Below are positions 14,401-47,233 of a stretch of 64,000 nucleotides of DNA, piece by piece. The position numbers and the translations under genes were made by a program. Origin of the DNA: an uncultured Actinomycetota bacterium (GTDB lineage: Bacteria > Actinomycetota > Actinomycetes > Propionibacteriales > Nocardioidaceae); the NCBI GenBank assembly GCA_963726525.1, contig CAVSCS010000007.1, positions 69,410 to 133,409 of the forward strand. Reading direction: 5' to 3'. The stretch's first letter is position 1. Every line of letters begins with the position of its first letter. The notes beneath the pieces were generated by a model that was given only the letters and a program-made list of their open reading frames with translations, was not told the DNA's origin and made no database searches.

Positions 14401-14527
14401 CGCAGCTCCTCTCGGGTCGTCGACCTCGCGGGACCGGGCCCCGGTCGACTCCGGGGCCCGCCGGGTTGGTGCCCCGGTCGCGTCCGGTCCATACCGCCAC
14501 CGCCCCGAGGGGGTGGGCGGTCTGCGG

Positions 14528-18305
<3,778 letters not shown>

Positions 18306-18450
18306 GGGCGGGGAGGTCCTCTCAGGCGGCGGTGACTGCCAGCCTAGGAACGCTGTCCGACACCCGGACTGGTTTCCCACATGGTGGCACCCGTCGAGAC
18401 GCGGGAGAAATCTCCGCGGGTCTGCTGGGAGTGCGCCCTAGGCTGGGTGG

Positions 18451-19296: not shown

Positions 19297-19302
19297 CCGC
19301 GG

Positions 19303-19580: not shown

Positions 19581-19623
19581 CGTCCAGGTCCGCGTCCGGG
19601 CGAGCCGCACCGGACGGCGTACG

Positions 19624-20862
19624 TCAGAGCCCGAGGCCGAGCGCGGCGTCGAGGAGCCGGTGGAGCGTGGCGGCGGCGTCGGGGTCGGAGGTGTCGGCCA
19701 GGCCGGTGGTGCCGACGGTGGCGTCGACCCACTCCTGGACGGCGGCGACCGCGGTCGGGGCGTCGAGGTCGTCGGCCAGCGCGGCCAGGACGCGCTCGAC
19801 GACGGGGGCCGCAGGGGCGCCGGCGCCGAGGGAGAGGGCACGGCGCCAGGCGGCGAGGGTGTCGACGGCGTCCCAGAGCTGGTCGTCGGTCCACTCCCAG
19901 TCGCTGCGGTAGTGGTGGCGCAGCAGGACCAGGCGGATCGCCATCGGGTCGACGTCGCTCATCCGGAGCGCGGAGACGAAGACCAGGTTGCCCTTGGACT
20001 TCGACATCTTCTCGCCGTCGTAGGCGACCATGCCGGCGTGGGCGTAGGCGCGCGCGAAGCGCTCACCGGGGTGGGCGACCTGGGCGTGGCCGGCCGACAT
20101 CTCGTGGTGCGGGAAGACCAGGTCGCTGCCACCGCCCTGCACGTCGAAGGACGTGCCGAGGTGGTCGAGCGCGATCGCGGAGCACTCGATGTGCCAGCCG
20201 GGGCGTCCGGGGCCCCACGGGCTCTCCCACGCCGGCTCGCCGGGACGCTCGGCGCGCCACAGCAGGCAGTCGAGCGGGTCCTTCTTGCCCTCCCGGTCGG
20301 GGTCTCCCCCGCGCTCCGGGAAGACCTGCAGCATCAGCTCGCGGTCCCAGCCCGAGACGGTGCCGAAGGCGTCGTCGGCACCGACGGAGAAGTAGAGGTC
20401 GTCGTCGACGCGGTAGACCGAGCCGGTCTCCTCGAGGCGCTGGATGAGCGCGATGACCTGCGGGATCGACTCCACGGCGCCGGTGTAGTGGTGGGGTGCG
20501 AGGACGCGCAGGGCCTCCATGTCCTCACGGAAGAGCTGGGTCTCGCGCTCGGCCAGCTCGACCCAGTCGACCTTCACCTTCGCGGCCCGCTCGAGCAGCG
20601 GGTCGTCGACGTCGGTGACGTTCTGCACGTAGGTCACCTCGTGACCGGCGTTGCGCCACGCGCGGTGGAGCAGGTCGAAGGCGACGTAGGTGGCGGCGTG
20701 GCCCATGTGGGTCGCGTCGTAGGGCGTGATGCCGCAGACGTAGAGCCGTGCCGGGCCCTCGGGCCGGGTCTCGACCAGCGCCGTCGTGGACGTGTCGTGC
20801 ACCCGGACGGCGGGGCCGGTCACGGGGAGCTCGGGAACCTCGGGGGACGTCCAGGCGCGCAT
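19624..20862 (-). CDS. mshC: L-cysteine:1D-myo-inositol 2-amino-2-deoxy-alpha-D-glucopyranoside ligase (mycothiol ligase)
   Basis: 412 aa and CysRS-like: [19 protein letters not shown] (HIGH region) and KMSKSKGN (KMSKS). It lacks an anticodon-binding extension, and the Rv2130c-like neighbourhood follows. Confidence 0.85.
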
Positions 20863-20896
20863 GACGCGCAGCCTATCGACCGCCCGCCAGCGCGGG

Positions 20897-21727
20897 TCAG
20901 AAGGGCGGCCAGGGAATGACGGGGTACGCCGAGGAGGCGGGGGCCGGGAACTCGCCGCGCGCCAGCAGCCGGGTGACCCGGCGCACCGTGGTGGCGACCT
21001 CGTCCTCGGTCAGCAGGCCGGCCAGGGTGGCGCCCAGGTCGCCGTCGAGGGCAGCGCGCAGGCGCTGCAGGCCGGCGACCTCGTCGGCGACGAGCGGCTC
21101 CCCCACCCAGCCCCACAGGACGGTGCGGAGCTTGTTCTCGACGTGGAAGGTGAGTCCGTGGTCGACACCGTGGCGGTGCCCGTCCGGCATCGGCAGCACG
21201 TGGCCGCCCTTGCGGTCGGCGTTGTTGACCACCACGTCGAACACCGCCATCCGGCGCAGCGGCGACGAGTCCTCGTGGACCAGCGAGACGGGCTGGTCGT
21301 GGGCGTCGAGGCCGTCGAAGACGTGGCGGAAGCCGTCGGGCACGCGTGCCTCGCGGACGATGTCGACCGGGTCCTGGTCGTCGTCCTCGTCGCGCCACAG
21401 CTGCACCATGCCGATGCCGTGGGGCCCGTCGCGCAGGACCGTCGGGGGGACGACGTCCCAGCCGAGCGCCTCCGAGACGGCGTGGGCCGCGACCTCGCGC
21501 GCGGCGAGGGTGCCGTCGGGGAAGTCCCACAGGGGGCGCTCGCCGGCGACCGGCTTGTAGACCACCCGCACCCCGTCGATCTCGCCGACGAAGGTGGCGT
21601 TGGACGCCGGCAGGACCCGACCGTGCAGGGTCAGCTCGCCCTCGGGGATCTGGCGGGCGGCCTCGGAATCACGACCGGAGCCAGGACCGGAGCCAGGACC
21701 CGGGTCAGGGCTGGCGTCAGGGCTCAC
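20897..21727 (-). CDS. SCO1664 family protein (PI3/4-kinase-like fold, function unknown)
   Basis: 276 aa with the motifs [15 protein letters not shown] and [11 protein letters not shown]. It is the first member of the conserved trio downstream of mshC. Confidence 0.7.
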
Positions 21728-32374: not shown

Positions 32375-33688
32375 TCAGGTACGACGACGCAGGGTGGCGG
32401 CGTACATCGCGTCGGTGCCCTCGCGGTGCGGCCACAGCTGGAACGAGCCGACCTCGTCGGTGTCACCGCGGCGCCCCAGCACGGCCTGCACCACGGCGGT
32501 GGTCTCGGCGACGACGGGCGAGCAGGTGGCGTAGACGACGACGCCCCCGGGACGCACCGACTCGAGCGCCACGTCGAGCAGCACCTGCTGCAGACCGACC
32601 AGGACGTCGACGTCGTCGAGCGAGCGCCGCCAGCGCGACTCGGGGCGTCGCCGGAGCGCGCCGAGGCCGGAGCACGGCGCGTCGACCAGGACGCGGTCGA
32701 AGGTGCCGGGCGTCCAGGCCGGACGGGTGCCGTCGCCGGCGAGCACGTCGACCGAGCCGGCAGGCAGTGCCGACATCGCCGAGGCGACGAGCGCGGCGCG
32801 GTGCGGCTGCCGCTCGTTGGCGACGAGCCGGGCACCCCGCTGGGCGGCGAGCGCCCCCAGCAGCGCGGCCTTCCCGCCGGGACCGGCGCAGAGGTCGAGC
32901 CAGCGCTCGTCGCGTCCCTCCAGCGGGGCGTCGGCCATCGCGAGCGCCACCAGCTGGGAGCCCTCGTCCTGCACGCCCGCCCGTCCCTCGGCGACGGCCG
33001 GGACGCTGCCCGGGTCGCCGCCGGTGAGCACGGCTCCGAAGGGCGAGCGCTCGGTCGCGACCGCTCCGGCCGCCTCGAGCTCGGCGACGTCGGCCAGCCC
33101 GGGGCGGGCGACCAGCGTGACGCGGGGGGCGGCGTTGTCGGACGCGAGCAGCTCCTCGAGCTCCTCGTCGGAGCCGAGCGCCTGCGCGAGCAGGTCGACC
33201 ACCCAGCGGGGGTGCGACTGCGCCACCGCGAGGTGGCCGTGCAGGTCGGTGTCGCGGGACGGGGCGACCTCGGCCACCCACGCGTCCAGCGGGCGACGGC
33301 TGACCTTGCGCAGGACGGCGTTGACCAGCCCGGCGGGTCCCTGGCCGACGGACGCGCGGACCAGGTCGACGCTCGTCGAGATCGCGGCGTGGTCGGGCAC
33401 CCGCATGGCGAGCAGCTGGTGGACCCCCAGGCGCAGCACGTCGCGGACCTCCGGCTGCAGGCGGGGCTTGGTCAGGCAGGCGTCGATGACCGCGTCGTAG
33501 AGGCCCTGCATCCGGATCGCGCCGGACGCCAGCTCGGTCGCCAGCCCGGCGTCGCGGCCCTCGAGCCGGTGCTTGCGCAGGACCTGGGGCAGGACGAGGT
33601 TGGCGTAGGCCCGGTCGACGCGGACGGCGGTGAGCACGTCGAGAGCCGCGCGGCGCGGCCGGTCGACCGGACGGCGGCGCTCACTCAC
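32375..33688 (-). CDS. rsmB: 16S rRNA (cytosine967-C5)-methyltransferase RsmB/Fmu
   Basis: 437 aa. A NusB-like N-terminus is followed by DLCAGPGGK, DAPCSGLG and the ATCS catalytic Cys motifs. It lies downstream of fmt, as in Rv1407. Confidence 0.85.
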   Translation of the reverse strand: MSERRRPVDRPRRAALDVLTAVRVDRAYANLVLPQVLRKHRLEGRDAGLATELASGAIRMQGLYDAVIDACLTKPRLQPEVRDVLRLGVHQLLAMRVPDHAAISTSVDLVRASVGQGPAGLVNAVLRKVSRRPLDAWVAEVAPSRDTDLHGHLAVAQSHPRWVVDLLAQALGSDEELEELLASDNAAPRVTLVARPGLADVAELEAAGAVATERSPFGAVLTGGDPGSVPAVAEGRAGVQDEGSQLVALAMADAPLEGRDERWLDLCAGPGGKAALLGALAAQRGARLVANERQPHRAALVASAMSALPAGSVDVLAGDGTRPAWTPGTFDRVLVDAPCSGLGALRRRPESRWRRSLDDVDVLVGLQQVLLDVALESVRPGGVVVYATCSPVVAETTAVVQAVLGRRGDTDEVGSFQLWPHREGTDAMYAATLRRRT

Positions 33689-34121
33689 CGAAGTGCTCCC
33701 GCACCAGCTTCCGGGGAGCCGAGGCGGCCCACGCCTCGGTGATCACCTCGGCGAGCTCGGCGCGACTGATCTCGCCGAGACGCGACTGCTGGACCAGCAC
33801 TGCGGCATGTCCCTTGAAGTGGTCGATGGTGAAGAACGGCGTGGACTCGTCCTCGACGAGCGCGAACTTCTCGACCTCGGTGGGCGTCGAGATGACGACG
33901 AGGTCGTCGTAGCGCTCGCCGGTCTCGGGGTCGACCGCGGTGGGGCTCGGGGCCCGGTGGAGCAGGAACCCCTTGCCCTTCGGACCGCGGGGCACCTTCC
34001 AGGTCGGCCGGTCACCCCAGGAGGTGCCCAGCTCGGTCTCGGGGAGGGCGGCGCAGATCTCGTCGATGTCCTCCGGCCGCGCCGGGCGGTCGGGGTCGGC
34101 GTCGTCGTGGGAGGTGCTCAC
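33681..34121 (-). CDS. MmcQ/YjbR family DNA-binding protein
   Basis: 146 aa. YjbR-like segments: WGDRPTWKV and FTIDHFKGHAAVLV. Confidence 0.6.
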   Translation of the reverse strand: MSTSHDDADPDRPARPEDIDEICAALPETELGTSWGDRPTWKVPRGPKGKGFLLHRAPSPTAVDPETGERYDDLVVISTPTEVEKFALVEDESTPFFTIDHFKGHAAVLVQQSRLGEISRAELAEVITEAWAASAPRKLVREHFGE

Positions 34122-34130: not shown

Positions 34131-35057
34131 CTAGTCACCGAGGCGCGCGCCCGACTCCAGGCGCACCCCGCGCGCCCAGTCGGCGGCACGCATCTGCTTC
34201 TTGCCGAACGCCTTGACCTCGCCCAGCTCGACCGGCGTGGTGGAGGTCCCGACGTGCACCGCGTTCTTGGTGACCTCCAGGACTCCCGGCTCCAGGCGGT
34301 CGCGGTCGACCGGACGGACCGGACCGACCTTGATCCGCTCGCCCTCGAAGAGGCTCCACGCACCGGGCGCGGGGGTGCAGGCGCGGACCTGGCGGTCGAT
34401 CGCCACGGCCGGGTGCGCCCAGTCGATGCGGGCGTCGTCGACGGCGATCTTCGGGGCGAAGGTGACACCGTCCTCCGGCTGCTCGCGCGCCTCCAGGGTG
34501 CCGTCCTCGATCCCGTCGAGAGTCTGGACGAGCAGGCCGGCGCCGCCCTCGGCGAGGCGGGTCAGCAGGTCGCCGGCGGTGTCGTCGGGACGGATCCGCT
34601 CGGTCATCACGCCGAAGACGGGTCCGGCGTCGAGGGCCTTGACGATGCGGAACGTGCTGGCGCCGGTGAGCTCGTCGCCGGCCCAGACCGCGTGCTGCAC
34701 CGGGGCCGCCCCGCGCCAGGCGGGCAGGACGGAGAAGTGGAGGTTGATCCAGCCGTGCGGCACCAGGTCGAGGGCCGACTGCGGCAGCAGCGCGCCGTAG
34801 GCCACGACCGGGCACGCGTCGGGCCGCAGCGCGGTGAGCTCGGCCTGGAACGCGGGGTCGCGCGGGTGCTCCGGCTTGAGGACGGGGACGCCGAGCTCGT
34901 CGGCGCGCTGGGCGACCGGGCTGGCGACCAGCTTGCGCCCGCGCCCGCTGGGGGCGTCGGGGCGGGTGACGACCCCGACCAGCTCGTGGCGGCTGGCCGC
35001 GATCGCGTCGAGGGCGGGCACGGCGACCTCGGGGGTGCCGGCGAAGACGACGCGCAT
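34131..35057 (-). CDS. fmt: Methionyl-tRNA formyltransferase
   Basis: 308 aa with [32 protein letters not shown] and a C-terminal OB-like domain. Confidence 0.9.
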
Positions 35058-35070
35058 CAGCTCTGCTCCC

Positions 35071-35616
35071 TCATCGGGCGGACCCGAACGTGGCGTGGGG
35101 GCTCAGCCGCACCGTCGGCCTCTCGAGCCCGAACCACTCCGACTCCCGGATCTCCTTCATCGCGGCCTTGCGGGCCGCGGTGTCGAGCTTGTCGATGAAG
35201 AGGATCCCGTCGAGGTGGTCGGTCTCGTGCTGCATGGCCCGGGCGAGCAGCTCGGAGGCCTCGATGCGCAGGGGCTCGCCGTGCATGTCGAACCCGGTCG
35301 CGACCACCGACAGCGCCCTCAAGCAGTCGTAGGTGAGCTCGGGCAGCGACAGGCAGCCCTCCGCACCGTCCTGGGTCTCGTCGGAGAGCGCGAGCGAGGG
35401 GTTGACCAGGTGGCCCACCTCGCCCTGGACGTTCCAGGTGAACACCCGCAGGCCGACCCCGATCTGGGGAGCGGCCAGGCCGGCTCCCGGGGCCGCGAGC
35501 ATCGTGTCGGTGAGGTCGGTGACCAGCTGGCGGACCTCCTTGTCGAAGTCGTCGACCTCGACCGCGCGCTGGCGCAGCACGGGGTCTCCGAAGAGTCGGA
35601 TGGGCTGGACGGCCAC
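35071..35616 (-). CDS. def: Peptide deformylase
   Basis: 181 aa with the three PDF motifs [15 protein letters not shown] and QHETDHLDG. Confidence 0.9.
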
Positions 35617-35652
35617 GGAGCTCCTTCACTGGGCGGGTGCGAGCGCCCCAGT

Positions 35653-38600
35653 CTAGGGACGGGTCAGTCCCGTCGCGTGGCCCACCTCCTCGCCCTTCTC
35701 CTGGATGCACCCGCCGATGTCGCCCACCGAGCCCCAGGCGTCCTCCGGTGAACGGAGCCAGCCGTCGGCCCCGGTGAGGAACAGGTCGGTGACGCTGACC
35801 AGGTCGGCGGCGTTTCCGAGGGCGCCGGCAGCCCCGGCCTGGTCGGCCCACTCGAGGGCGTAGCCGGCCGCACCGACCCCGACGTCGAGACCCCGCTGTC
35901 CGGTCGCGTTCGGCACCGCCAGGGTGGACCCGCCCCCCGTGACGTGCTCGGCGGCGCAGGTGCCCAGGGACTTCGCCAGGTCGGAGGAGGCCTGGATCGT
36001 GGCGCCGGCCGTGCGCAGCCCGTCGACCACCGCGCCGTCGAGGCCGACCTTGTCCAGCACCCACGCGAGCCCGTCGACGGCGAAGGCCAGGGCGTCCATG
36101 ACGAACAGCACGGTGCCGGCGATCGAGGCGGCGAAGCCGAGGAGCGCCGCGGCGGCCCGCTGGACGAAGTTGGAGGCGACCGTGACGACGATCTCGAGGA
36201 CGGACGGATCGCGGTAGTCGGTCGTCACGGCGCGGTCACCGTGCATGACGACGACGGCCTGGAAACCCTGGCTCGCCGCGACTCCGCCCCACGAGTGGGT
36301 GTCGGCCTGGGCGTACTCCTGGACCGTCATGCCGACCTGCGTGCCGGCGATGTAGCGGCCCGCCTCGCCCGGGCAGTTGGGCGCGATGGTCACCCGCACC
36401 GACTTCGGGGTGGACAGCGAGAAGCACCGCGGCGCCACCGTCACCACGACCCGCGGGGTGTTGGCCCTTCCGTCGGCGTCGACGCCTGCCCACGGCCGCT
36501 CGCCGGCGGACAGGACGCGGCCGCCCACCTCGCTGCGCACCATGCGCCAGTAGGTGGCGCCCGCCGAGCTCAGCCCGATCTGCGCACGCGCGCCGGGGAT
36601 CGCCATGAGCGGGGCCAGGCAGCTGTCGCCGTCGGTCAGTACCCGGTCCGCGGACCGGGGCAGGCCGTTGGCCCACGGCTGCCAGGTGTCGAGCCACGAC
36701 CCGTCGGCCTTCTCGAAGCGGAGCTCGACGTCGAGCCGTGCGCAGTAGTCGATGCGCACCTGCGATCCCTCGGAGCGGCCCTCCCAGTCCAGCCGGTCGG
36801 TCTGGACCGTCAGCGTGCGCCGGGACGCCGCGTCGGAGATGTTCGCGTCCCAGGGGCGCCGCGACTCGGGGAACATTTCATCGATCCGGGTCGCATCGTC
36901 GGTCACCGAGATGAAGGGCAGCAGGCCGTCCTTGTTGGGATAGCCCCGGCCGCCGCCGCCGTCGGCCTGCACGCCGCTGATCCCGCCGCCGATGACCAGC
37001 CCGGCCGGGCACCGCGCGTCCTCCCCGCCCAGCACCGTGAAGGGGTAGCGCGCCGGGCGGGAGACCACGTTGGCCGGTCGGCAGGAGACGCCGCGGTAGC
37101 GCACGGTCATCTGCGTGTCCTGGGTGAGGAGCTCGCTGACGTAGAAGGGGTTGTAGGTCCCGCCGAAGACCCTCGCACCCGTGAGGTAGAACTCGCCGGG
37201 GTGGTACTGGTCCATGGCGTGGGTGGGCGCTTCGCTCGTGAGGCGCGTACCGCGCACGAACCAGCGACGACCGGTGCGGGTGAGGTTGGTGTAGGCGGTG
37301 CCCTTCAGCGCGACCTGGTCGGACTGGGTGGACGGCCGGATCGGGCAGTTGCCGGGCTGCAGCAGGGCGTCGACTCCCGGCATGCCGTCGGGGAGCGGGC
37401 CGCCCCCCACACGCTGGGTGCCGAGGAAGCGGGGAGTCCCGTCGGACTGGACCGGGATCCAGAAGTTGTAGTCGACGCTGACACAGTCCACGAAGGCGAA
37501 CTCGGCCGTCGAGGCACCCGACCTGCCCACGGTGACCGACCGCCGTGCGTCGACCGGCAGGGAGCCTGCTCCCACGAGGGGCTGCGGCTGGTTGCCGTCG
37601 ACCCAGGCGTGGACGTAGTTGCCGGGTCCCGCGACGGCCTGCAGCTCGAGGTTGGTCCCGCGCAGGAAGCCCGGCGCACCACCGGGCTGGCGGCAGCGCC
37701 CCAGGCGGTCCTCGAACGCGTGGTCAGGACCGGCCGGCACGCTGGCCGACCGCACCTGGATGGTGCCGCCGGCCCCGGCGCTGAGCGGGAGGGGCAGGCA
37801 CATGGTCGAGGTCATCCGGAACTGGGGACGCAGGGTCGTCTGGTCGTCGGTCAGGACGGTCGACCAGACGACGCGCTCCTCCGGCACCTTCGTGGCGCCG
37901 ACGACCCCCACCGCCTCGTACTCGTAGGCCGCCGGGTCGGGCGCACCGCTCGGGAGATGGCGCGGGTATGCCGCCCGGGGCACGACCCGGATCGTCGTGC
38001 CGCGCGCGTAGCGGCCGTAGCCCTGGGTCCGCAGCTGCTCGGACTCCGCGGCGCTGGTGCGCCGCGGGTCGGTGCAGTTGGGCTCGGTGAGCACGTCCAG
38101 GAGCCCGCGCGTGCGCACCGAGCGGCGGTAGGGCTCACCGTCGTTGGGGCGCAGGAAGTCCTCGGTCGCGGTGTAGAGCGTGACGCAGTCCGGCGCCCAC
38201 TCGACCTCGGAGAAGACCGCGACGTAGCCGTCGACGCGCATCGTGAGGGTCTCCTCGCGGCGCAGCGCGGAGCCGCCGGCCGTCTGGACGTAGAAGCCGA
38301 CGAACCGGTAGTTGGCGGGTGCGGGGCCGCCGGCCGAGATGTCCACGTCGGTGCCCTCCACGAACCCGTCGGTCCCACCGACACGGCACGAGCGACCCGC
38401 GAGGCGAGGTGCGGGGACGCGCTCGCCGGTCGGCGTGCCGTCCGTGCGGGCGTTCACCTGCAGGCAGCGCGGGGTGGCGACGAGGCCGAGGTCCTCGCTC
38501 GAGACGAGCGCGTCGCTGGTCGGGACGTAGGTCGCGACCACCCGTCGGCGCTGCTGGGCCAGCGGCTCGCGCGAGCCAGGGACCTCGAACGCGCACCGGC

Positions 38601-41600
38601 CGGCGGCGGCCGGGCCCTGGCACAGCGTGCGGGTGCCCTCCCCGTCGGACTGCAGGTCGACGCGGACGGTGCCGGTCGGCGCACCGGCGGACCCGAGCGG
38701 GTCGGAGACGGTCCAGCTCGCGACCTGGTCGGAGCCGACCAGCCACGACCCGCGCGAGGTGAGGGTGGTGCGGAGGCTGCTGCCGACCGCGGCCACCTGC
38801 AGGGTGCCGCGCTGCGACGACACCGGCTGGAAGCGGTCGTCACCGGAGTACTCCACGACCGTGAGGTAGGAGCCGGCCGGCATGCTGCGGGCCGGCAGGT
38901 CGCAGGAGCCGTCGGCGGCACGCTCGGCACGCACCGTGCACGACGCCCGCTCGAAGCCGTAGGGGTCGAGCACGCGCAGCGTGACGGTGCCGGTCGGCGC
39001 TGCGACGTGGTTCGGCCCGGCGAGGGAGAACCGGGCACGCCACGTGTCGCCGTAGGAGATGGATCCCGACGGCGCGGCCGAGACGGTCGGGACCAGCGGG
39101 TCGGCCCAGACGCTGAGGCCGGTGCGGCCCGCGCGGTAGTCGCGGCCGTCCCCTGTGGTGACCACCTCGTACGTCGTGCTGGTCCGGGTGGCCTGGAGCA
39201 GCCATGACGCGCGCCGCACCCCCGGGAGGAGCTGCTGCGGCGGACCCTGCACGACCCCGTCGGCCAGCAGCTGGAGCTCCATCCCCGCGTGCGGCCGCAG
39301 CACCTCGGGGGTCTGCAGGTCGAGCGTGAGGTCCACCGGGCCGCCGACCGTCGGCGTCCGGGTCGTGGAGAGCCGCATGAGGGTCGGGAAGGAGGCCACC
39401 GTGGTCGCGAACGGGGCGGACGTGGCCTCGAACAGCTGACCGCCGGGGTCTGCGTAGAGGTACTCGGCGGTGAACGTGGTCGCTCCCGCGTGGGAGGGGG
39501 TGACCTTGACCATGAGGTCCCAGCCGTAGGTGGGCCACGACGCGACGCCCACCTCGACGCCGAGGTCGTCGCGGATCACCACGGCGCTCGGGTACGGGCG
39601 ACGCGACGGCATCGAGCTGAGCTGCAGGTAGCCGGAGCTGCCGAAGGCCAGCGGTGCCACCTCGCGGATCGTGACCACCGGCCCGGGCTGCGGAGTGACG
39701 GTCACGGTGCCGGACACCGTGCTCGCCGCGACGTCGGACGACGACGGACGGAAGTCCGCACGCACCGCTCGGGGGCCGGGGCCGGCCACCGGCACGTCAG
39801 CGGAGGCCCGGCCCTGCTGCACCGGGCGGGTGGCGACCACGTCGCCGTTGACCCGGAACACGACCTCGCCGTCGGTGCCCCCGGCCGAGGAGACGGCCGC
39901 AGTCAGGCGCAACGCGGTGCCGGACTCGACCTGCTCGGGCAGGTCGAGCCATGCCGTCGAGGACGGGAACGGCCCGAGCTCGAGGTCGGGTGCGATCCAC
40001 TCCGCGGGTCGGTGCAGGTCGTCGCCGGAGTAGCGCACCTCGAGGCGGTTGCAGAAGCAGGCGTGGGCCAGCGGCAGGTCGAGGGAGGCGTCACCGCTCG
40101 ACAGGGTCGCGGAGTCGAGCACCCGTCCGGTCTGGCGGTCGTGGAGCTCGACGACGCCCGACGGGACGGGGTCGGTGTCGGGGAGGTGCACGGACAGGAA
40201 GGCGGCGCCGGGCCGGGCGTCCGGCGACCACTGCAGGAGCGGCGCTGCCGGGACGAGTCGCTCGACGACCACCCGGACCACGGCGGACGTGCCCTCGTGG
40301 TTGCCGTCGGTGGGCGAGAAGTGGACCCGCAGGTCGAGCGCACCCGGCGCCTCGGCCGTGAAGGTCACGGTGCCGGCGCCGTCGGTCATGGTGCCGGTGC
40401 CGACCACCGTGTCGTCACGGTCGCGCAGCACGAGCAGGCCCGTCCGTGCCCCGGCGACGCTGGTCACCACGACGGTCGCCGCCTCACGCCACGCGACGGG
40501 CTCCGCGGTCGCCGAGACCTCCGAGCGGGCGCGGGCCACGACGAGCCGGGTGAGGTCCGAGCGGACCGACTCGGTGGAGGCGGAGCCGACGACCTCGGCG
40601 CGGAGCGCGTGCTCACCGGCGTCGAGGACCGTCTGCCCGACGCGCCACTCGACGTCGCCGCCGGCGTCGGTCGTGCGGGAGTCGAGGACGGTCGTGCCGT
40701 CCAGCAGGCGCACCTCGGCGCCCGCGCGACCGGCGCCGCCGACGTGTGCGGACACCATGAAGTCGGGGTCGTCCCAGGTGCGGGCGGTCGGTGCGTCGAG
40801 GGTGACGGTGGTCGCGGCCGGGGCGACCTCCACCGAGACCTCCTCGGACGTCGACGACGCCCACCCGTTGTCCGGGCGCAGCACCGCGGAGAGGCGGTGG
40901 CTCCCGACGCCGAGCGGCACCTCGAGCCGCGCACGCCCGTCCACGAGCCGGGCCTGCACGAGCCTGCCGTCGTAGGTCACCTGCACGGTGCCCTGGGCGG
41001 GCCAGCGCTCGCCGCGGGACTCCACGTCGACCACGGCGGGCTCCCCGAGCCGGACGCGGGAGTCGACGACGGTCGCAGTCGTGGTGGTGGGCAGGTCCTG
41101 GGTCGTCACGTACTCCTCCCAGCGCGAGTCCTCGTGGAAGTCGTCCCCGAGGTAGGTCAGTCGCACGAAGGAGGCAGGCAGGTCGTCGACGTGCCACTGC
41201 GCGATGCCGTCGACCACGTCGACCTCGTGCGTCACGCCGCCGTTCTCGAACCGCATGGTGCCGGTGGGGAGCGGGACGTCGGGCTCGTCGTCGATGACCA
41301 GCGAGGCGGTGAGGACCGTCGGGGCGTGGAGCACCGTGGGGCGCGGCGCGCTCAGCTGCGGCAGCACCTGCTGGCGCACCCGGACCGTCAGGTCCTGCGA
41401 CGTGACCGGGGTCGAGGACCCGTCGACGGTGAGCCTGGCCCGGACCAGGTGGGGCCCTTGCGCGAGCCCGAAGACCCGGAAGCGGGCCGTCTGGTCGGCG
41501 TCGAGCCGCACCGGGTCGCCGAGGCTGCCGTCCGGGCCGAGGAACTCGACCCAGCCGCCCCCGACCGGGGTGTCGGGGGACACCGCGAGGACCAGGTCGA

Positions 41601-43689
41601 CCGCGTCCCCGGGCCGCACGACCTCGGGGGTGGAGGTGAGGGTCAGCTCCAGCTCGGGCGCCGTCTCGGTCGAGACCTGCACGGCCCCGGCGTCGCAGAC
41701 CGACGCCACCCGGCCCACGCCGCGCTGGTCGGCGTACTCGCACCGGTCGGCGGTGGCCGCGAGCAGCACGCCGGCCTCCGGGCCGGGGACCAGCACGGGC
41801 GTCAGGTCGCCGTCCGCCAGCTCGAGGGGCCCGAACGGGCCCGGGGCCGCGGTGGTGCCCTCGCAGGTGCCGTCGGGGTCGACGTTGCCCGTCTCCCCGG
41901 GGGTCATCGCCTCCGAGAGGCGTGCGCAGGCGACGTCGGAGTCGTTCACGGAGACGGCCGAGTTGACCACCGAGAGCCCGAAGCCGTCGGCCGAGCCCGC
42001 GACACCGCCGCCGACGACGGTGACGTGCACGAGCTCGCCGTCACCGAGGACCGCACCACCGGCCCGGGTCGAGGCGGTGTTGCCCACCAGGGTCGAGTTG
42101 ACCAGGACGACCTGGCGCGCGGCCACGGCGCCACCGGAGCCCGCCGGCGCGTGGTTGTCATGGAACGTCGAGGTGGTGGCGCGCACGCTGCGACCGGCGA
42201 CCGCGCCGCCGTCGCCGCCCGTGGTGACGTTGTCGACGAACACCATGTCCTCGAGCGACACCGACGGTCCGTCGCTGCTCAGGCCCGCACCGCCGGCCGC
42301 GCTCCGTCCACCCGTGACCTCCAGGCCACGCAGGACGACCTGGCCGCCCTCGGCCTCCGGGTCGCCCTCGGCGCGCACCGCCCGGAACGCACCATGGGCG
42401 TCGAGGACGACACCGTCGCGGGTGCCGTCCAGGACGACCCCCGGGGCGAGCACGAGCGTGTCGAGGAGGTCGATGGTGCCGGTCACGTCGAAGTCGACGA
42501 CGTCACCGCCGCGGGAGGCGGCCTCGGCGACCGCGGCGCGGACGCCGCAGGACGACCCGGCGTCGACGCACTCGCCCGGGACGGGCAGGGTGTCGGCGAG
42601 CGTGGTCACGACCAGGCCGGCGTCACCCGGCCCCTGCACCGAGGTCGGCAGCCCGCCGGGGAGCACCGGTGCGACCGCGGACGCCGCGCCCCCGGCGAGG
42701 ACCAGCAGTCCCGGAGCCATCGGCGCGACGAGAGCCACGACCGTGACCGTGGCGACCGACGCGAGCCGGGCAGGTGTCCACAGGCCGCGTCGGCCACCTG
42801 CCTGACGCCGGTCGGGCGTCGCGGCCGGCAGGGGCGTGTCCTCGCCCCGGCGGTGCGCCAGCCACCCGAGTGCGGCACCGGCCACGGCGAGCGCGGCTGC
42901 GAGGCAGCCCATCAGCCCGAGGAGGCCGAGCCCGGTGCGTCCCAGGGTGGCGTCGGGACCAGCGAGCAACGAACGACCCGTGCGCCCGAGCAGCCACCCG
43001 GCGCCGAGGACCGGCGCGGTCCCCAGCAGGACAGCGCCCCGCGCGACCAGGCGCTGGTGGACGGCACGGCGCGCGACGTCGCGGACGGGGGCTCCGCAGA
43101 CGAGGCCGGCCCACATGACCGGGATCGCCACCAGGAGTGCTGCCGGGACCGCGAACGGCACCGCCAGCCACAGGGCGCGCAGGCCCGCGGACCTGCCCCC
43201 ACGACGCGCGCGCACGCCCGCCCAGAGCAGCGCGACGACGGCGGTGGCCCACCAGAGCCTGCCGCTCGCCCCCGCACCGACCACGGCGAGCGCGGCCAGG
43301 CCCACCATCGCGGGCAGGGCGCGCCACGCACGCCTCCAGGCCGACGTGAGGGACGACCGGGACCCGGAGAGCCGCTGGCGCACCAGGACCGCGGCCGAGG
43401 CGATGGCGAGCAGGGAGCCGACCGTGCCCGCCAGGGCGAGCACCGCGGTGGGCAGGAGCGCGAGGCCGACGACCGCGTGGCCACCGGGCTCGTCGACGAG
43501 CAGGACGGGGACCCGGACCAGCAGGAGGCCCGCCCACCCGAGCACGACCGCGACGACGAGGGCGCCGCTCACCGTGACGGCGACCCGGGCGAGCGTCGAC
43601 GGCACGCTCCCGGGCTGCGGCAGGGACCGGGCGGGCTGCATCGTCACGACGTACTTCTTCCGAGTCGTGGGAGCCGCGCGCGACCGCAC
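35653..43689 (-). CDS. Giant (2678-codon) membrane-anchored surface protein: N-terminal multi-TM region, CSLREA/beta-helix-like region, ~11 Ig-like modules, 7 Cys-pair modules, C-terminal TM hairpin and tail
   Basis: This is a single uninterrupted ORF with consistent G/C at third codon positions. Residue ranges from my own count: hydrophobic helices 33-340; CGVRAAVAEA plus GGAV/GGAG-type repeats 355-670; ~95-aa beta-rich repeats 675-1738; Cys-pair modules 1739-2490; hydrophobic 2498-2546. The start is uncertain (GTG at 43689 or ATG at 43641). Confidence 0.75.
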   Translation of the reverse strand: MRSRAAPTTRKKYVVTMQPARSLPQPGSVPSTLARVAVTVSGALVVAVVLGWAGLLLVRVPVLLVDEPGGHAVVGLALLPTAVLALAGTVGSLLAIASAAVLVRQRLSGSRSSLTSAWRRAWRALPAMVGLAALAVVGAGASGRLWWATAVVALLWAGVRARRGGRSAGLRALWLAVPFAVPAALLVAIPVMWAGLVCGAPVRDVARRAVHQRLVARGAVLLGTAPVLGAGWLLGRTGRSLLAGPDATLGRTGLGLLGLMGCLAAALAVAGAALGWLAHRRGEDTPLPAATPDRRQAGGRRGLWTPARLASVATVTVVALVAPMAPGLLVLAGGAASAVAPVLPGGLPTSVQGPGDAGLVVTTLADTLPVPGECVDAGSSCGVRAAVAEAASRGGDVVDFDVTGTIDLLDTLVLAPGVVLDGTRDGVVLDAHGAFRAVRAEGDPEAEGGQVVLRGLEVTGGRSAAGGAGLSSDGPSVSLEDMVFVDNVTTGGDGGAVAGRSVRATTSTFHDNHAPAGSGGAVAARQVVLVNSTLVGNTASTRAGGAVLGDGELVHVTVVGGGVAGSADGFGLSVVNSAVSVNDSDVACARLSEAMTPGETGNVDPDGTCEGTTAAPGPFGPLELADGDLTPVLVPGPEAGVLLAATADRCEYADQRGVGRVASVCDAGAVQVSTETAPELELTLTSTPEVVRPGDAVDLVLAVSPDTPVGGGWVEFLGPDGSLGDPVRLDADQTARFRVFGLAQGPHLVRARLTVDGSSTPVTSQDLTVRVRQQVLPQLSAPRPTVLHAPTVLTASLVIDDEPDVPLPTGTMRFENGGVTHEVDVVDGIAQWHVDDLPASFVRLTYLGDDFHEDSRWEEYVTTQDLPTTTTATVVDSRVRLGEPAVVDVESRGERWPAQGTVQVTYDGRLVQARLVDGRARLEVPLGVGSHRLSAVLRPDNGWASSTSEEVSVEVAPAATTVTLDAPTARTWDDPDFMVSAHVGGAGRAGAEVRLLDGTTVLDSRTTDAGGDVEWRVGQTVLDAGEHALRAEVVGSASTESVRSDLTRLVVARARSEVSATAEPVAWREAATVVVTSVAGARTGLLVLRDRDDTVVGTGTMTDGAGTVTFTAEAPGALDLRVHFSPTDGNHEGTSAVVRVVVERLVPAAPLLQWSPDARPGAAFLSVHLPDTDPVPSGVVELHDRQTGRVLDSATLSSGDASLDLPLAHACFCNRLEVRYSGDDLHRPAEWIAPDLELGPFPSSTAWLDLPEQVESGTALRLTAAVSSAGGTDGEVVFRVNGDVVATRPVQQGRASADVPVAGPGPRAVRADFRPSSSDVAASTVSGTVTVTPQPGPVVTIREVAPLAFGSSGYLQLSSMPSRRPYPSAVVIRDDLGVEVGVASWPTYGWDLMVKVTPSHAGATTFTAEYLYADPGGQLFEATSAPFATTVASFPTLMRLSTTRTPTVGGPVDLTLDLQTPEVLRPHAGMELQLLADGVVQGPPQQLLPGVRRASWLLQATRTSTTYEVVTTGDGRDYRAGRTGLSVWADPLVPTVSAAPSGSISYGDTWRARFSLAGPNHVAAPTGTVTLRVLDPYGFERASCTVRAERAADGSCDLPARSMPAGSYLTVVEYSGDDRFQPVSSQRGTLQVAAVGSSLRTTLTSRGSWLVGSDQVASWTVSDPLGSAGAPTGTVRVDLQSDGEGTRTLCQGPAAAGRCAFEVPGSREPLAQQRRRVVATYVPTSDALVSSEDLGLVATPRCLQVNARTDGTPTGERVPAPRLAGRSCRVGGTDGFVEGTDVDISAGGPAPANYRFVGFYVQTAGGSALRREETLTMRVDGYVAVFSEVEWAPDCVTLYTATEDFLRPNDGEPYRRSVRTRGLLDVLTEPNCTDPRRTSAAESEQLRTQGYGRYARGTTIRVVPRAAYPRHLPSGAPDPAAYEYEAVGVVGATKVPEERVVWSTVLTDDQTTLRPQFRMTSTMCLPLPLSAGAGGTIQVRSASVPAGPDHAFEDRLGRCRQPGGAPGFLRGTNLELQAVAGPGNYVHAWVDGNQPQPLVGAGSLPVDARRSVTVGRSGASTAEFAFVDCVSVDYNFWIPVQSDGTPRFLGTQRVGGGPLPDGMPGVDALLQPGNCPIRPSTQSDQVALKGTAYTNLTRTGRRWFVRGTRLTSEAPTHAMDQYHPGEFYLTGARVFGGTYNPFYVSELLTQDTQMTVRYRGVSCRPANVVSRPARYPFTVLGGEDARCPAGLVIGGGISGVQADGGGGRGYPNKDGLLPFISVTDDATRIDEMFPESRRPWDANISDAASRRTLTVQTDRLDWEGRSEGSQVRIDYCARLDVELRFEKADGSWLDTWQPWANGLPRSADRVLTDGDSCLAPLMAIPGARAQIGLSSAGATYWRMVRSEVGGRVLSAGERPWAGVDADGRANTPRVVVTVAPRCFSLSTPKSVRVTIAPNCPGEAGRYIAGTQVGMTVQEYAQADTHSWGGVAASQGFQAVVVMHGDRAVTTDYRDPSVLEIVVTVASNFVQRAAAALLGFAASIAGTVLFVMDALAFAVDGLAWVLDKVGLDGAVVDGLRTAGATIQASSDLAKSLGTCAAEHVTGGGSTLAVPNATGQRGLDVGVGAAGYALEWADQAGAAGALGNAADLVSVTDLFLTGADGWLRSPEDAWGSVGDIGGCIQEKGEEVGHATGLTRP

Positions 43690-43798
43690 GCCCCCAGCGG
43701 TGTGTGGGGGCCTGGACGACCCGCCTGCCCATCCTCTCCCGGACCGGGCGTCCGCCGTGGCGCTTCGCGAGATCCCGCGACGTCCGGTGACCGGTGCG

Positions 43799-45829
43799 TC
43801 AGATCGACAACGGGTCGACCTGCACGCGGACCGGATCGAGCTTGCGGGCCGAGCGCATCCGCTGCAGGTCGCCGAGCGAGCGGGACAGGGCCGGGCCGCG
43901 GGCCCACGGCACCCGCAGCACGACGCGGTGCTCGTCGCCGGACGGCACCGGGCCCAGCACCTCGCCGCCCTCCGGCAGGTCGAGGAGGTGGAGGGCGTCG
44001 TCGAGCGCGCCGAGGTCGCCGGTGAGGGTCGCGATGCGGGCGGCCGGCGGCAGGTGCGCGGCCGCGCGCTCCTCGACCTCGCGCTGCGCGAAGCCCGCGG
44101 GGTCCCAGCTCACCAGCGCCTGGAGCACCGGGTGGGCGGGGTCGCCGACCGCGACGACGTGCCCGCCGCGGCGGGCCAGGGCGGCGGCGTTGAGCCACCG
44201 GCGCAGCGCCTCCTCCGTGGCCCGCATGTCCTCGCGGGCCAGGCTGAGCCACGTGTCGAGGACGACCACGGCGGCGTAGCCCCCCTCGGCCACCGGTTCG
44301 GCGCCGACCGTCGCGACGACCAGGTCGGGGTGGTCGGAGACGCTGGCCAGCACGCGGTCCCCGCTGGAGCTGCGCACCGTCGTGCCGGGGAACATCCGGC
44401 CGAGCTCCTCGGCGGTGCGCGCCTCGCCGCGCACCGGGGCCCGCAGGCCGCGACCGCCGCAGGTCGGGCACGACCACGCCTCCTCGCGGTGGCCGCACCA
44501 CCGGCACTGCGGCGGGTCGGCGGGGCGGGGGATGGTGAGCGGGCCGGTGCAGACGGTGCAGCGCGCCGGGGTGCGGCACGTGTCGCAGGCGAGGGCGGCG
44601 GCGTAGCCGGCCCGCGGCGTCTGGACGAGGACCGGCCCGGCCTGCAGTCCGCGGCGGATCGCGTCGTAGGCCGCGCGGGGCACGCGGGTGCCGACCGAGC
44701 GGTCCTCGGCCGCCACGGCCTCCACGCGGACGCGCTGACGCAGCGCGGCCCGGGGCGTGACGAGCTCGTGCGCCCACCCGGAGGCGAGCAGGTGCTGCGC
44801 CTCGGGGGTGCGGGCCACGCCGCCGACGAGCACGGCGGTGCCCTGCTGCTCGGCGCGGGTGAGAAGCACCTCGCGGGTGTGGGGGTAGGGCGCTCGCGGC
44901 TCGGCGTGCAGGTCGTCGCCGTCGTCCCACACCACCACGAGCCCGAGGTCGTGGACGGGGGCGAAGGCCGCCGAACGGGTGCCGACCACCACCCGCCGCG
45001 CGCCGCGGGACACGGCGAGGAAGTGGCGGTAGCGCGCCGCCGGTCCGTCGTCGGCCGTCAGGCACACGTGGTGCCCCTCCCCCAGCCGCGCCAGCAACGC
45101 CGCGTCGACCCGGTCGACGTCGCGCCGGTCGGGCACGCAGACGACCGATCCCCGGCCCGAGGCGTACGCCGCCGCCACCGCGTCGGCGACCATGGCGGGC
45201 CAGTCGTCGGCCGGGGCGGCCGACCACACCGCACGGGGCGACCCGCCGTCGGCCAGACGTCGCAGGAAGGGCTCGGCGTGCTCGACCTCCGCCCAGGTCG
45301 TGGGCCTCGCCTCGCCCGGCGTCGGCGGTCGGCGGGCGGGGGATGGGTCCGTGACGGTCTTCTCGGCGGCCGCGTGGCGCGGAGGGACCGCGAGCCTGAG
45401 CACGTCGGACCGGGCGCCGGCGTAGCGCCGGGCGAGGGTCTCGGTCAGCAGCGCGACCTCGGGCGAGAGCACCGGCTCCGCGCTCACCACCCGCCGCAGG
45501 GGCTGGAGCCGTCCGGTGTGGTCGGTGGTGGACGCCCGCTCGACGACGAACCCGTCGACGTCCTGGCCCGCGAAGCGCACCTTGACCCGCGCCCCGGGCA
45601 CGGCCGTGCCCGCCATCGCCGTCGGCACGGCGTAGTCGAAGGGGCGGTCGAGGTGCGCCAGCGCGATGTCGACGAGCACCCGAGCGACGGGGTCGGCCTC
45701 CGCGGGCTCCCACGCCGCGGCAGTGCGCCGGCGGGTCGCCGCCGCCTTGGCGCGGGCATCGTCCACGGCAGCACGAAGCCCCGGGAGCATGTCTGCTTCC
45801 GGGGCCTCGTGCTCGCTCATGGGGCGCAT
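43799..45829 (-). CDS. priA: Primosomal protein N' (replication restart helicase PriA, actinobacterial type)
   Basis: 676 aa with the N-terminal HLDRPFDYAVP motif, the Cys4 zinc-binding CDTCRTPARCTVCTGPL...CRWCG and a degenerate helicase core, as in Rv1402. Alternative starts at 45820 and 45790. Confidence 0.85.
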   Translation of the reverse strand: MRPMSEHEAPEADMLPGLRAAVDDARAKAAATRRRTAAAWEPAEADPVARVLVDIALAHLDRPFDYAVPTAMAGTAVPGARVKVRFAGQDVDGFVVERASTTDHTGRLQPLRRVVSAEPVLSPEVALLTETLARRYAGARSDVLRLAVPPRHAAAEKTVTDPSPARRPPTPGEARPTTWAEVEHAEPFLRRLADGGSPRAVWSAAPADDWPAMVADAVAAAYASGRGSVVCVPDRRDVDRVDAALLARLGEGHHVCLTADDGPAARYRHFLAVSRGARRVVVGTRSAAFAPVHDLGLVVVWDDGDDLHAEPRAPYPHTREVLLTRAEQQGTAVLVGGVARTPEAQHLLASGWAHELVTPRAALRQRVRVEAVAAEDRSVGTRVPRAAYDAIRRGLQAGPVLVQTPRAGYAAALACDTCRTPARCTVCTGPLTIPRPADPPQCRWCGHREEAWSCPTCGGRGLRAPVRGEARTAEELGRMFPGTTVRSSSGDRVLASVSDHPDLVVATVGAEPVAEGGYAAVVVLDTWLSLAREDMRATEEALRRWLNAAALARRGGHVVAVGDPAHPVLQALVSWDPAGFAQREVEERAAAHLPPAARIATLTGDLGALDDALHLLDLPEGGEVLGPVPSGDEHRVVLRVPWARGPALSRSLGDLQRMRSARKLDPVRVQVDPLSI

Positions 45830-45897
45830 TCAACCAGCGCCCTCCGACGGACCGTGCAGCCGTCCGTCAGGGCTGTGGACGGGGTCACCCCGACGTC

Positions 45898-45932
45898 GAA
45901 GGACCCCCTCCCGGTGTGGGAGGGGGTCCTTC
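45898..45932 (-). terminator. Putative intrinsic terminator hairpin downstream of metK
   Basis: A perfect 15-bp stem, GAAGGACCCCCTCCC / GGGAGGGGGTCCTTC, with a 5-nt loop lies 27 nt after the metK stop. There is no U-tract, as in many actinobacterial terminators. Confidence 0.55.
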
Positions 45933-45958
45933 GGTGGAGCAGGTCGGGCGGGTGCCTC

Positions 45959-47161
45959 TCAGACGCCGGCGGCGGCCTTCAGCTTCTCGGCGCGGTCGGT
46001 GCTCTCCCAGGTGAACTCGGGCAGCTCGCGACCGAAGTGGCCGTAGGCCGAGGTCTTCGCGTAGATCGGGCGCAGGAGGTCGAGGTCGCGGATGATCGCG
46101 GCCGGACGCAGGTCGAAGACCTCGAGCACGGCCTCCTGGATCTTCTCGTCGGACACGACGCCGGTGCCGAAGGTCTCGATGAAGACACCGACCGGGGCGG
46201 CCTTGCCGATGGCGTAGGCGACCTGGGCCTCGCAGCGACGGGCGAGCCCGGCCGCGACGACGTTCTTGGCGACCCAGCGCATGGCGTAGGCGGCCGAGCG
46301 GTCGACCTTCGACGGGTCCTTGCCGGAGAAGGCGCCGCCGCCGTGACGCGCCATGCCGCCGTAGGTGTCGACGATGATCTTGCGGCCGGTCAGCCCGGCG
46401 TCGCCCATCGGACCGCCGATGACGAAGGTGCCGGTGGGGTTGACCAGCATCCGGTAGCTCTCGGAGGGCAGGTCGAACGTCGAGAGCACGGGGTCGATCA
46501 CGTGCTGCTTGATGTCGGCCTCGAGCGTGGCGTGGTCGACGTGGGCGTCGTGCTGGGTCGACAGCACGACGGTGTCGATGCGCACCGGGCGGTCGTCCTC
46601 GTCGTACTCGATGGTGACCTGGGTCTTGCCGTCGGGACGGAGGTAGTCGAGCGTGCCGTCCTTGCGCACCTCGGAGAGGCGCTGGGCCAGGCGCTGGGCG
46701 ATCGTGATCGGGAGCGGCATCAGCTCGGGGGTGTCGTCGCAGGCGTAGCCGAACATGAGGCCCTGGTCGCCGGCGCCGCGCTTGTCGAGCTCGTCCTCGC
46801 TGGAGCCCACACGCGACTCGTGGCCGGCGTCGACACCGGCGGCGATGTCGCTGGACTGGGCGCCGATGGCGACCTGCACGCCGCACGTGGTGCCGTCGAA
46901 GCCCTTCTCCGAGGAGTCGTAGCCGATGTCGAGGATCGCCTTGCGGACGATGTCGGCGACCGGGGCGTACGCCGTGGTGCGGACCTCGCCCGCGACGACG
47001 ACCAGACCGGTCGTCAGCAGGGTCTCGACCGCCACGCGCAGGTTGGCGCGGTCGGGATCCTCGGACATGAGGTGGTCGAGGACCGAGTCGCTGATGCGGT
47101 CGGCGATCTTGTCCGGGTGACCCTCGGTCACGGACTCCGAGGTGAACAGGCGTCCTGCCAC
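45959..47161 (-). CDS. metK: S-adenosylmethionine synthase
   Basis: 400 aa with [26 protein letters not shown] and [19 protein letters not shown]. Confidence 0.95.
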
Positions 47162-47233
47162 GGTGCTCTCAATTCTGGTGTGGGGCGGTGGAGTTTCAAA
47201 CGTACCTGCTGACCAGCATCCGGGACGCCGATC

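Follow-up and report, generated by a model that had tools for sequence, protein, structure and literature searches.

The giant gene between priA and def

The DNA analysed here (the window) is a stretch of 64,000 nucleotides from an uncultured actinobacterium of the family Nocardioidaceae (GenBank assembly GCA_963726525.1, contig CAVSCS010000007.1, positions 69,410 to 133,409), and it carries on its minus strand an uninterrupted open reading frame (ORF) of 2,678 codons followed by TAG (35653..43689), referred to here as the giant gene. The gene order is metK, priA, giant gene, def, fmt and rsmB, with every gene on the minus strand and the neighbours identified by NCBIfam. The upstream neighbour priA (43799..45829, minus strand) is separated from the giant ORF by 109 nt and the downstream neighbour def (35071..35616, minus strand) by 36 nt. 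An earlier reading of the locus from its letters (the sequence-only reading) had described this ORF, at 36 nt from def and about 110 nt from priA, as a doubly membrane-anchored surface protein; the ORF and its spacing are confirmed, and the layout proposed for the protein is taken up below.

The length of the ORF alone is no proof of coding since the window has a G+C content of about 75% and long ORFs occur in several frames. The G+C content of the giant frame at the three codon positions (GC1/GC2/GC3) is 0.74/0.57/0.95 in each 200-codon block, a signature shared with priA, def and fmt. Big_3_5 of Pfam matches the frame at 1.9e-43 (eight stretches in the whole protein), and homologues that are collinear from end to end, 2,700-2,866 aa long and 30-33% identical, are found in independent assemblies. 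On the strand opposite the giant gene and priA there are three long ORFs (35944-39207, 39289-44025 and 42836-47212, plus strand; 1,087-1,578 aa). Their G+C excess sits at codon position 1 (GC1 0.88-0.95, about 0.94), and for this reason they were rejected as coding candidates and are regarded as shadows of the real genes. Taken together, the codon-position G+C, the antisense shadows, the Big_3_5 match and the collinear homologues indicate that the giant frame is genuinely coding, and a chance ORF, an assembly chimera or a split gene is excluded as far as sequence can show.

The public gene call starts at ATG 43641, which gives a protein of 2,662 aa. Another alternative start, GTG 43647, has the best-spaced purine-rich stretch upstream among the candidate starts, as read from the sequence. 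Scans of 35000-44200 for promoter and terminator consensus sequences gave no match.

The N-terminal membrane domain and the seventh hydrophobic segment

Residues 1-312 (42754..43689, minus strand) are predicted from hydropathy to form a polytopic membrane domain. Hydropathy averaged over 21 family members places six consensus helices at residues ~40-60, 75-101, 128-158, 175-194, 221-233 and 255-276. A 19-residue hydropathy scan finds seven N-terminal hydrophobic segments, or eight when the long ones are split, in agreement with the roughly eight helices seen in the sequence-only reading. No Pfam family is consistently matched in any of the 21 members, and NCBIfam has no match to the domain. 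The only residues invariant in all 21 members are P178 and P288, and with two prolines alone invariant the domain has no catalytic signature. In the family average, loops rich in Lys and Arg alternate with loops poor in them, and this parity fits a topology with the N-terminus inside and the C-terminus outside.

The domain is followed by a seventh hydrophobic segment, ATVTVVALVAPMAPGLLVLAGGAASAVAPVLPG (residues 313-345; 42655..42753, minus strand), with possible signal peptidase I (SPase I) sites at A-x-A. In the family consensus it is preceded by the most basic loop (6.7 Lys/Arg) and has a core of 13 residues. Roughly 20 of the 26 members have a Pro and an A-x-A (small-x-small) motif after the segment, just before the first folded domain; in P0013, for example, TAMVAVFALCATFVSTPAPASA stands between RR and V. 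The first Pro comes a median of 16.5 residues after the last basic residue. The segment of the window protein is longer and consists of 14 hydrophobic residues, P-M-A-P and a second hydrophobic run ending in AASA, so that in this protein and in P0009 it comprises ~30 uncharged residues split by Pro-x-Ala-Pro. A pattern like that of a Sec signal peptide (basic n-region, h-region of about 7-15 residues, helix breaker and small residues at -3 and -1) is present in ~20 of the 26, with the qualification that A-x-A is frequent by chance in Ala-rich sequence. The seventh segment is probably either an internal, signal-peptide-like export signal or a signal anchor, and we infer that the N-terminal domain may be cut off at this point by signal peptidase.

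The beta-helix cassette and the stalk

The first predicted exported module is a beta-helix cassette (residues 355-675; 41665..42627, minus strand) with a CSLREA-like cap (ECVDAGSSCGVRAAVAEA), GGAx turns of the POMP type, a C-terminal end resembling choice-of-anchor Q, and three Cys pairs. Residues 351-680 match POMP_repeat (TIGR01376) with 21.5 bits (cut-off 15, E = 1.5e-4). The same segment scores 18.8 bits against choice_anch_Q (NF041518), under the cut-off of 25, and the aligned region reaches 65.3 bits in P0017 and 29.6 bits in P0105. CSLREA_Nterm (TIGR04214) has no match in the window, and P0017, which reads CSLRGAL, scores 17.1 bits, again under the cut-off of 25; the resemblance to the CSLREA motif is visible in the homologue alignment. 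The CSLREA-like beta-helix of the sequence-only reading is thereby upheld as to its POMP-type repeats and the look of its motif, and not as a formal member of the CSLREA_Nterm or choice_anch_Q families. The protein has no autotransporter barrel and is not of the chlamydial Pmp type.

The first part of the stalk (residues 676-1734; 38488..41664, minus strand) consists of ~11 immunoglobulin (Ig)-like modules of the Big_3_5 type. Taken as a separate segment it matches Big_3_5 of Pfam at 3.6e-50 in nine stretches, and eight to nine significant stretches over 1,059 residues fit ~11 modules of ~96 aa, close to the eleven or so ~95-aa modules counted earlier. This count rests on the Pfam stretches and their spacing: self-BLAST of the giant protein detects no internal repeats at E <= 1, and an iterative self-HMM (hidden Markov model) drifted to half-domains.

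The second part (residues 1735-2495; 36205..38487, minus strand) comprises seven beta-rich modules, delimited by Cys alignment, profile search and AlphaFold2. Each module opens with a Cys in its first strand and has one Cys pair (1742/1768, 1835/1872, 1964/1999, 2069/2115, 2203/2227, 2316/2357 and 2422/2439). These 14 Cys are near-invariant over 33-45 aligned homologues, which bears out the seven Cys-pair modules of the sequence-only reading. From residue 355 to its C-terminus the window protein has 14 Cys pairs; the eight that lie in the C-terminal 944 residues were measured for conservation, and all 16 of their Cys are near-invariant across the family. AlphaFold2, run on the C-terminal 944 aa with a 51-sequence alignment, models the Cys-pair modules at a predicted local distance difference test score (pLDDT) of about 90; a 4-sequence alignment reached only pLDDT 36.

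A profile of these 944 aa, searched against 1.84 billion representative sequences, found 1,080 proteins, most of which match the last module only, and do so repeatedly. These matches are arrays of 7-18 repeats of PF18998 (Flg_new_2, the divergent InlB B-repeat) at 1e-20 to 1e-68. The family fragment P0016 itself matches PF18998 at 5.5e-11, and the window sequence has no direct match to PF18998 in Pfam even at E <= 10. The seven Cys-pair modules thus appear to be distant relatives of the divergent InlB B-repeat.

The C-terminal helical domain

The protein ends in a family-specific domain of ~180 aa (residues 2496-2678; 35656..36204, minus strand) for which no match was found in Pfam, NCBIfam, PDB sequences or PDB folds. 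AlphaFold2 predicts it to be all-helical (pLDDT 50-70). The best E-value in a PDB profile search with the tail was 1.5, and a protein with a Diphtheria_T domain stood at 3.5. A Foldseek search of the PDB with the 944-residue model, in which the tail has pLDDT 50-70, returned spurious low-TM matches only (PitA at TM 0.07; an I-BAR domain for the helices). A sequence search of the PDB with the whole protein gave no significant match. The segment-by-segment family searches and structure prediction called for by the sequence-only reading cover most of the length with known modules and leave the two terminal domains without a family. The earlier statement that the protein has no recognisable enzymatic or toxin motif holds, there being no match to any such family.

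The first helix of the domain contains a hydrophobic stretch of ~35 residues, R-AAAALLGFAASIAGTVLFVM-DALAFAVDGLAWVLD (residues 2511-2546; 36052..36159, minus strand), identified by hydropathy and preceded by a conserved Arg. It is often split by a polar residue ~15 positions in, and heptad-spaced Asp or other acidic residues run through its second half and beyond. Of 29 members, 28 have a net acidic charge in the 25 residues after the stretch. The tail is 19% Ala and 15% Gly, and so Gly/Ala-rich as described before. Cys2578 (codon 35956..35958, minus strand) is Cys in all 50 aligned homologues and Cys2661 (codon 35707..35709, minus strand) in all 49, and the two are presumed to pair in a disulfide; Trp2652 and one Gly of the tail domain are also invariant.

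No LPXTG-like motif was found in the giant protein, as the sequence-only reading had stated of sortase signals, and the Pfam and NCBIfam scans detected no surface-anchor family (LPXTG, SLH, LysM, choline-binding and others). A single-pass C-terminal stop-transfer anchor was considered and rejected, since its acidic character and the invariant Cys pair speak for a tail outside the cell. The hydrophobic hairpin proposed earlier survives as a hydrophobic stretch that seems too short for two full membrane spans and is followed by no basic stop-transfer tail. It could be a re-entrant element, a helix packed among membrane helices, or a hydrophobic core that is buried until triggered.

A rare family with paired terminal domains

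The family was defined by an exhaustive profile search, which found 44 proteins at E <= 1e-30, ~26 of them complete (2,000-2,930 aa); a word-indexed search had reached three relatives only. The full architecture recurs in roughly 35-45 clusters at 50% identity. All of the ~26 complete members have ~7 N-terminal hydrophobic segments, and all except P0035 have, at the threshold of the hydropathy scan, a single hydrophobic segment 135-170 residues before the C-terminus. The tail-domain HMM matches every complete member, so that the N- and C-terminal hydrophobic domains co-occur throughout, and the tail is among the better conserved parts of the protein in the alignments. The shorter entries begin inside Ig domains and are fragments. 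The beta-helix is restricted to a closer subfamily; in the other members the signal-like segment is followed directly by Ig domains. Thus, the conserved core of the family consists of the N-terminal domain, the export signal, the stalk, the seven Cys modules and the tail, and excludes the beta-helix.

Named members are found in the cultured Nocardioides houyundeii and Nocardioides sp. 616. Homologues are annotated only as "Ig-like domain repeat protein", "Ig-like domain-containing protein" or "hypothetical protein", and none has an assigned function; the sequence-only reading had held that such a function in close homologues would make the protein ordinary. A scan of metagenome contigs yielded a single locus, L002, which was already known, and scans of plasmid records, phage records and viral contigs found no relatives.

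Genomic context and acquisition

A priA scan of GTDB species genomes gave 80 loci, none of them from the genome of the window itself and nearly all from Nocardioides or Nocardioidaceae, the closest of which have 80-82% priA identity. The giant gene is present in none of the 80. The priA-def gap, which the sequence-only reading had proposed to compare in related Nocardioidaceae, has a median of 92 nt in the 73 loci with both genes intact and is 28-401 nt in the ten closest relatives, compared with 8,182 nt in the window. These comparisons indicate that the giant gene is a lineage-specific insertion.

An ancestral motif upstream of def, CCGTCCCTAGACTGGGGCGC (35643..35662, minus strand), that has been kept in related Nocardioides marks where the insertion ends on the right. 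In seven of the relatives' loci (L004, L006, L007, L009, L024, L025 and L057) a motif CCGTCCCTAGACT(T/G)GG is located 40-60 nt upstream of def. With its -10-like TAGACT it probably serves as a promoter for def/fmt or as some other regulatory site. In the window the giant ORF enters the motif and ends at its TAG, so that the motif doubles as the last codons and stop of the gene. The 109 nt that separate the giant ORF from the priA stop (43690..43798, minus strand) do not significantly resemble the priA-def spacers in relatives. A second copy of the motif at the left junction, as a target-site duplication, was rejected: the local alignment of the flanks scores 20, compared with 18.2 +/- 2.8 for shuffles. 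The window has neither a tRNA nor a target-site duplication, and no integrase lies beside the giant gene. Its codon usage is that of the host, which fits a high-G+C actinobacterial donor or long residence in the genome.

Among eight homologue loci no two have related contexts, and no neighbouring gene recurs. In one of these, L001, the homologue P0002 is carried on a 14.1-kb island (7178-21330) at a tRNA-Tyr gene, with a 54-bp exact direct repeat of the 3' end of the tRNA at its two boundaries (7178-7231 and 21277-21330). The cargo of the island consists of an integrase, an HTH_17 excisionase, P0002, an NmrA-like gene and a TetR gene. The sequence-only reading had placed the gene in a housekeeping block with matching codons and no scars of mobile elements; this is correct for the window itself, but the gene is an insertion and a homologue lies on an island with an integrase and an excisionase. 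The absence from relatives, the unrelated contexts and the integrase island mark the giant gene as an accessory gene that moves horizontally and alone and has no need of dedicated partners.

Several further observations were made at these loci. No called gene covers the 440-1,050 nt before most homologues (L086, L088, L089, L001, L002 and L085; in L001 it is about 1 kb between the excisionase and the giant gene), compared with 109 nt in the window, and this stretch may be a long leader or a regulatory region. The priA-def interval exceeds 1 kb in 11 of the 73 loci, which points to it as a recurrent landing site for accessory genes. There, L021 (12014-17623) and L040 (11996-17589) carry a 5.6-kb insertion of another kind, oriented on the opposite strand; its four genes encode a 676-691-aa protein with a signal-like N-terminus, two epimerase-like proteins and a ~160-aa hydrophobic protein. 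In the priA-def spacer of L025 (about 10040-10360) there are four tandem copies of a ~60-nt unit with the palindrome CATGACGTCATGGCG, and single or partial copies lie between priA and def in L006, L009 and L057; these units look like a small repetitive extragenic element. Between fmt and rsmB the window has a 146-aa ORF (33681-34121, minus strand; GC3 0.93), and the corresponding interval in relatives is about as long (roughly 420-470 nt). This ORF may be a conserved small gene.

A membrane-tethered surface fibre and its alternatives

The reading that we favour, and hold to be somewhat more probable than all others combined, is that the giant gene encodes a horizontally acquired, solitary, membrane-tethered protein of the fibrillar adhesin type that belongs to a rare, unannotated family. 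The part of the protein from residue 355 onwards is made up of module types that are extracytoplasmic (the POMP/CSLREA-type beta-helix, the Big_3_5 Ig-like modules and the InlB-B-repeat-like modules), and the near-invariant Cys pairs and the acidic tail argue for an extracytoplasmic location. The giant extracytoplasmic protein of the sequence-only reading, with its order of modules, is supported in this respect. Its description as doubly membrane-anchored fares less well, since the seventh segment resembles a signal peptide and the C-terminal stretch is short and has no basic stop-transfer tail; double anchoring is no more than plausible.

In the favoured mechanism, six N-terminal helices would insert in the cytoplasmic membrane with the N-terminus inside, and the seventh segment would launch Sec export of the remaining ~2,330 residues. 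The exported part would fold and oxidise outside the cell, forming its 14 Cys pairs, to give a rod of roughly 70 nm, a length estimated by allowing, as generic sizes, ~4 nm for each Ig domain, ~3 nm for each B-repeat module and ~6 nm for the beta-helix. The C-terminal helical domain would also stay outside the cell, and its ~35-residue hydrophobic stretch would re-enter the membrane, probably against the N-terminal helices of the same polypeptide. The fibre would thus be tethered at its C-terminal end, and at its N-terminal end as well if the seventh segment is uncleaved; cleavage of this segment decides between a single and a double tether. The likely binding part on display would be the beta-helix cassette or, in the subfamily without the cassette, the first Ig domains. 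The tail is favoured as the tether because Gram-positive adhesins and choice-of-anchor proteins usually run in the same direction, from signal peptide through beta-helix and stalk to an anchoring element at the C-terminus. Such a fibre needs no partner genes, which fits a gene that moves alone.

Several points weigh against this reading. Searches of Pfam, NCBIfam and PDB detected no characterised adhesive domain, only the POMP/CSLREA-type beta-helix, and the beta-helix is missing in about half of the family and thus cannot be its universal functional part. AlphaFold2 gives the C-terminal hydrophobic stretch as one 51-residue helix (pLDDT 50-70) and not as the hairpin of the sequence-only reading. 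In the N-terminal domain the Arg-rich loop 3, on the side predicted to be outside, is the sole exception to the loop parity, and this same loop carries the only conserved motif of the domain, RRxLxxAVPF. Finally, terminal domains that are conserved and always paired suggest a function beyond tethering.

The alternatives can be weighed on the same evidence. An artefact, whether a chance ORF in high-G+C DNA, an assembly chimera or a decaying pseudogene, might be suspected from the many long non-coding ORFs in the window and from the finding of the exact protein on one contig only in the whole collection. This explanation is effectively refuted by the codon-position signature, which is uniform over the length of the ORF, and by Pfam and NCBIfam matches that fall in the giant frame. 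Moreover, the collinear homologues are found in cultured Nocardioides genomes as well as in several independent metagenomes, all of the structural Cys measured (16 in the C-terminal 944 residues) are conserved, and the right junction with the def-upstream motif is clean. A less remote alternative, to which we give perhaps one chance in five, is an architectural tether of the envelope. Here, as in the doubly anchored layout of the sequence-only reading, both ends would lie in the membrane of the producer, by way of an uncleaved seventh helix and a re-entrant C-terminal hairpin, and the ~2,100-residue rod would loop through or over the wall as a mechanical brace, spacer or scaffold and not as an adhesin. 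Both hydrophobic ends are conserved, the long seventh segment of the window protein and P0009 could remain as an anchor, and the gene is surrounded by a constitutively needed operon with probable read-through from priA and no terminator-like site found. However, the seventh segment of most members has a 13-18-residue core followed by Pro and A-x-A, which is typical of cleaved signals, and the display-type beta-helix suggests a binding function. The gene is also sporadic and lacking in all close relatives, and so cannot be a core structural element.

It is rather unlikely that the protein is a contact-dependent membrane effector with built-in immunity. In that case the long stalk would hold its C-terminal helical domain out to an adjacent cell, hydrophobic helices kept in a disulfide-locked bundle would insert in the target membrane, much as in pore-forming colicin or diphtheria-T-type domains, and the N-terminal domain, possibly cleaved off, would protect the producer. 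This arrangement would explain a 35-aa hydrophobic stretch that is unlike a classic stop-transfer anchor (an Arg before it, acidic residues after it and an extracytoplasmic invariant Cys pair), the strict co-occurrence of the N-terminal membrane domain and the tail, the signal-peptide-like segment that separates the two halves, and a solitary, mobile gene without partner genes. On the other hand, PDB profile and Foldseek searches gave no significant sequence or fold match to pore-forming or toxin families, and the tail is well conserved and not polymorphic as in polymorphic toxins. No orphan toxin or immunity modules are seen near any homologue, and plasmids, phages and viral contigs yielded no member of the family. 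A still slightly less probable version is a single-gene, Sec-dependent device for contact-dependent antagonism or cell-cell coupling in monoderm Actinobacteria that could pass from genome to genome as one ORF. In it the disulfide-locked helical tip of an exported stalk of ~2,300 residues would put its hydrophobic helices into the membrane of a neighbour, and a six-helix immunity or docking part would be split off by the internal signal peptide.

Comparison with known systems

The fibrillar adhesins of Gram-positive bacteria and the adhesin-like proteins of methanogens combine a repeat stalk with a display domain and an anchor (PMC8877628, PMC11532034). The giant protein resembles fibrillar adhesins in its very long extracytoplasmic rod of tandem Big_3_5 Ig-like repeats, in the beta-helix display module beside the export signal and in the hydrophobic element at its C-terminal end, and their genes are likewise strain-specific and horizontally moved. 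It differs from them in lacking LPXTG or any other known sorting signal and an anchor of a known kind. In addition, its export signal is not N-terminal and follows a six-helix domain of ~310 residues, and the protein ends in a disulfide-containing helical domain of ~180 aa with an acidic tail, not in a transmembrane helix with a basic tail. It is set apart from sortase substrates by the absence of a C-terminal LPXTG and, again, by a tail that is acidic and not basic. Ebh of staphylococci is a giant rod-like envelope protein with an ordinary N-terminal signal, a C-terminal membrane anchor and a basic cytoplasmic tail. Both proteins are giant and rod-like with a C-terminal hydrophobic segment in the membrane and no sortase, whereas the tail of the present protein is acidic, has an invariant Cys pair and is probably outside the cell.

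The cassette shares with CSLREA, POMP and choice-of-anchor Q proteins its order of parts, a CSLREA-like Cys motif followed by POMP-type GGAx turns and a choice-of-anchor-Q-like end, and in both cases the anchoring solution at the C-terminus after the cassette is variable. Unlike these proteins, the window protein is under the choice_anch_Q cut-off, has no CSLREA_Nterm match and does not end in an autotransporter barrel, a PEP-CTERM, T9SS or LPXTG signal, and the cassette is lacking in about half of the giant family. With respect to InlB B-repeat arrays (PF18998), profiles detect homology in the last of the seven Cys modules, and the stalk consists of beta-rich tandem modules (~90-130 aa each in the window protein). 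However, the window sequence has no direct Pfam match, the modules of the giant family each have an invariant Cys pair and large insertions, and their order is fixed and non-interchangeable whereas the known arrays are homogeneous.

The pore-forming domains of colicins (the C-domains of colicins A, E1 and Ia) and the T domain of diphtheria toxin are similar in being an all-helical C-terminus, ~180 aa in the giant protein, of a long delivery polypeptide and in having a hydrophobic stretch of ~35-40 residues. As a further parallel, each colicin is matched by a protection protein that is small and polytopic in the membrane. No sequence or structural similarity to these domains was detected, however; the hydrophobic stretch of the giant family comes first in the domain and not near its end, and no separate immunity gene accompanies the giant gene.

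By the matches described above, three of the five parts of the protein belong to known module families, and most of its length is an ordinary adhesin-type stalk. What is new is the two unannotated terminal domains, their obligatory pairing, and the location of an export signal after a polytopic domain. The giant protein is unusual but, on present evidence, not a categorically new system.

Significance

If the favoured reading is true, the giant gene would be a one-gene surface fibre that brings its own means of membrane tethering in place of sortase, and would represent a new "choice of anchor" for Gram-positive surface display. Should the effector reading be true, Actinobacteria would have a new contact-dependent system; failing both, the gene adds one more to the strain-specific giant proteins of the adhesin-like kind. 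The analysis also defines two domain families that Pfam and NCBIfam lack: the six-helix domain at the N-terminus, with its internal export signal, and the Cys-paired helical domain at the C-terminus. With its strictly paired terminal domains and its solitary mobility, the gene offers a clean experimental system in the cultured Nocardioides houyundeii and Nocardioides sp. 616.

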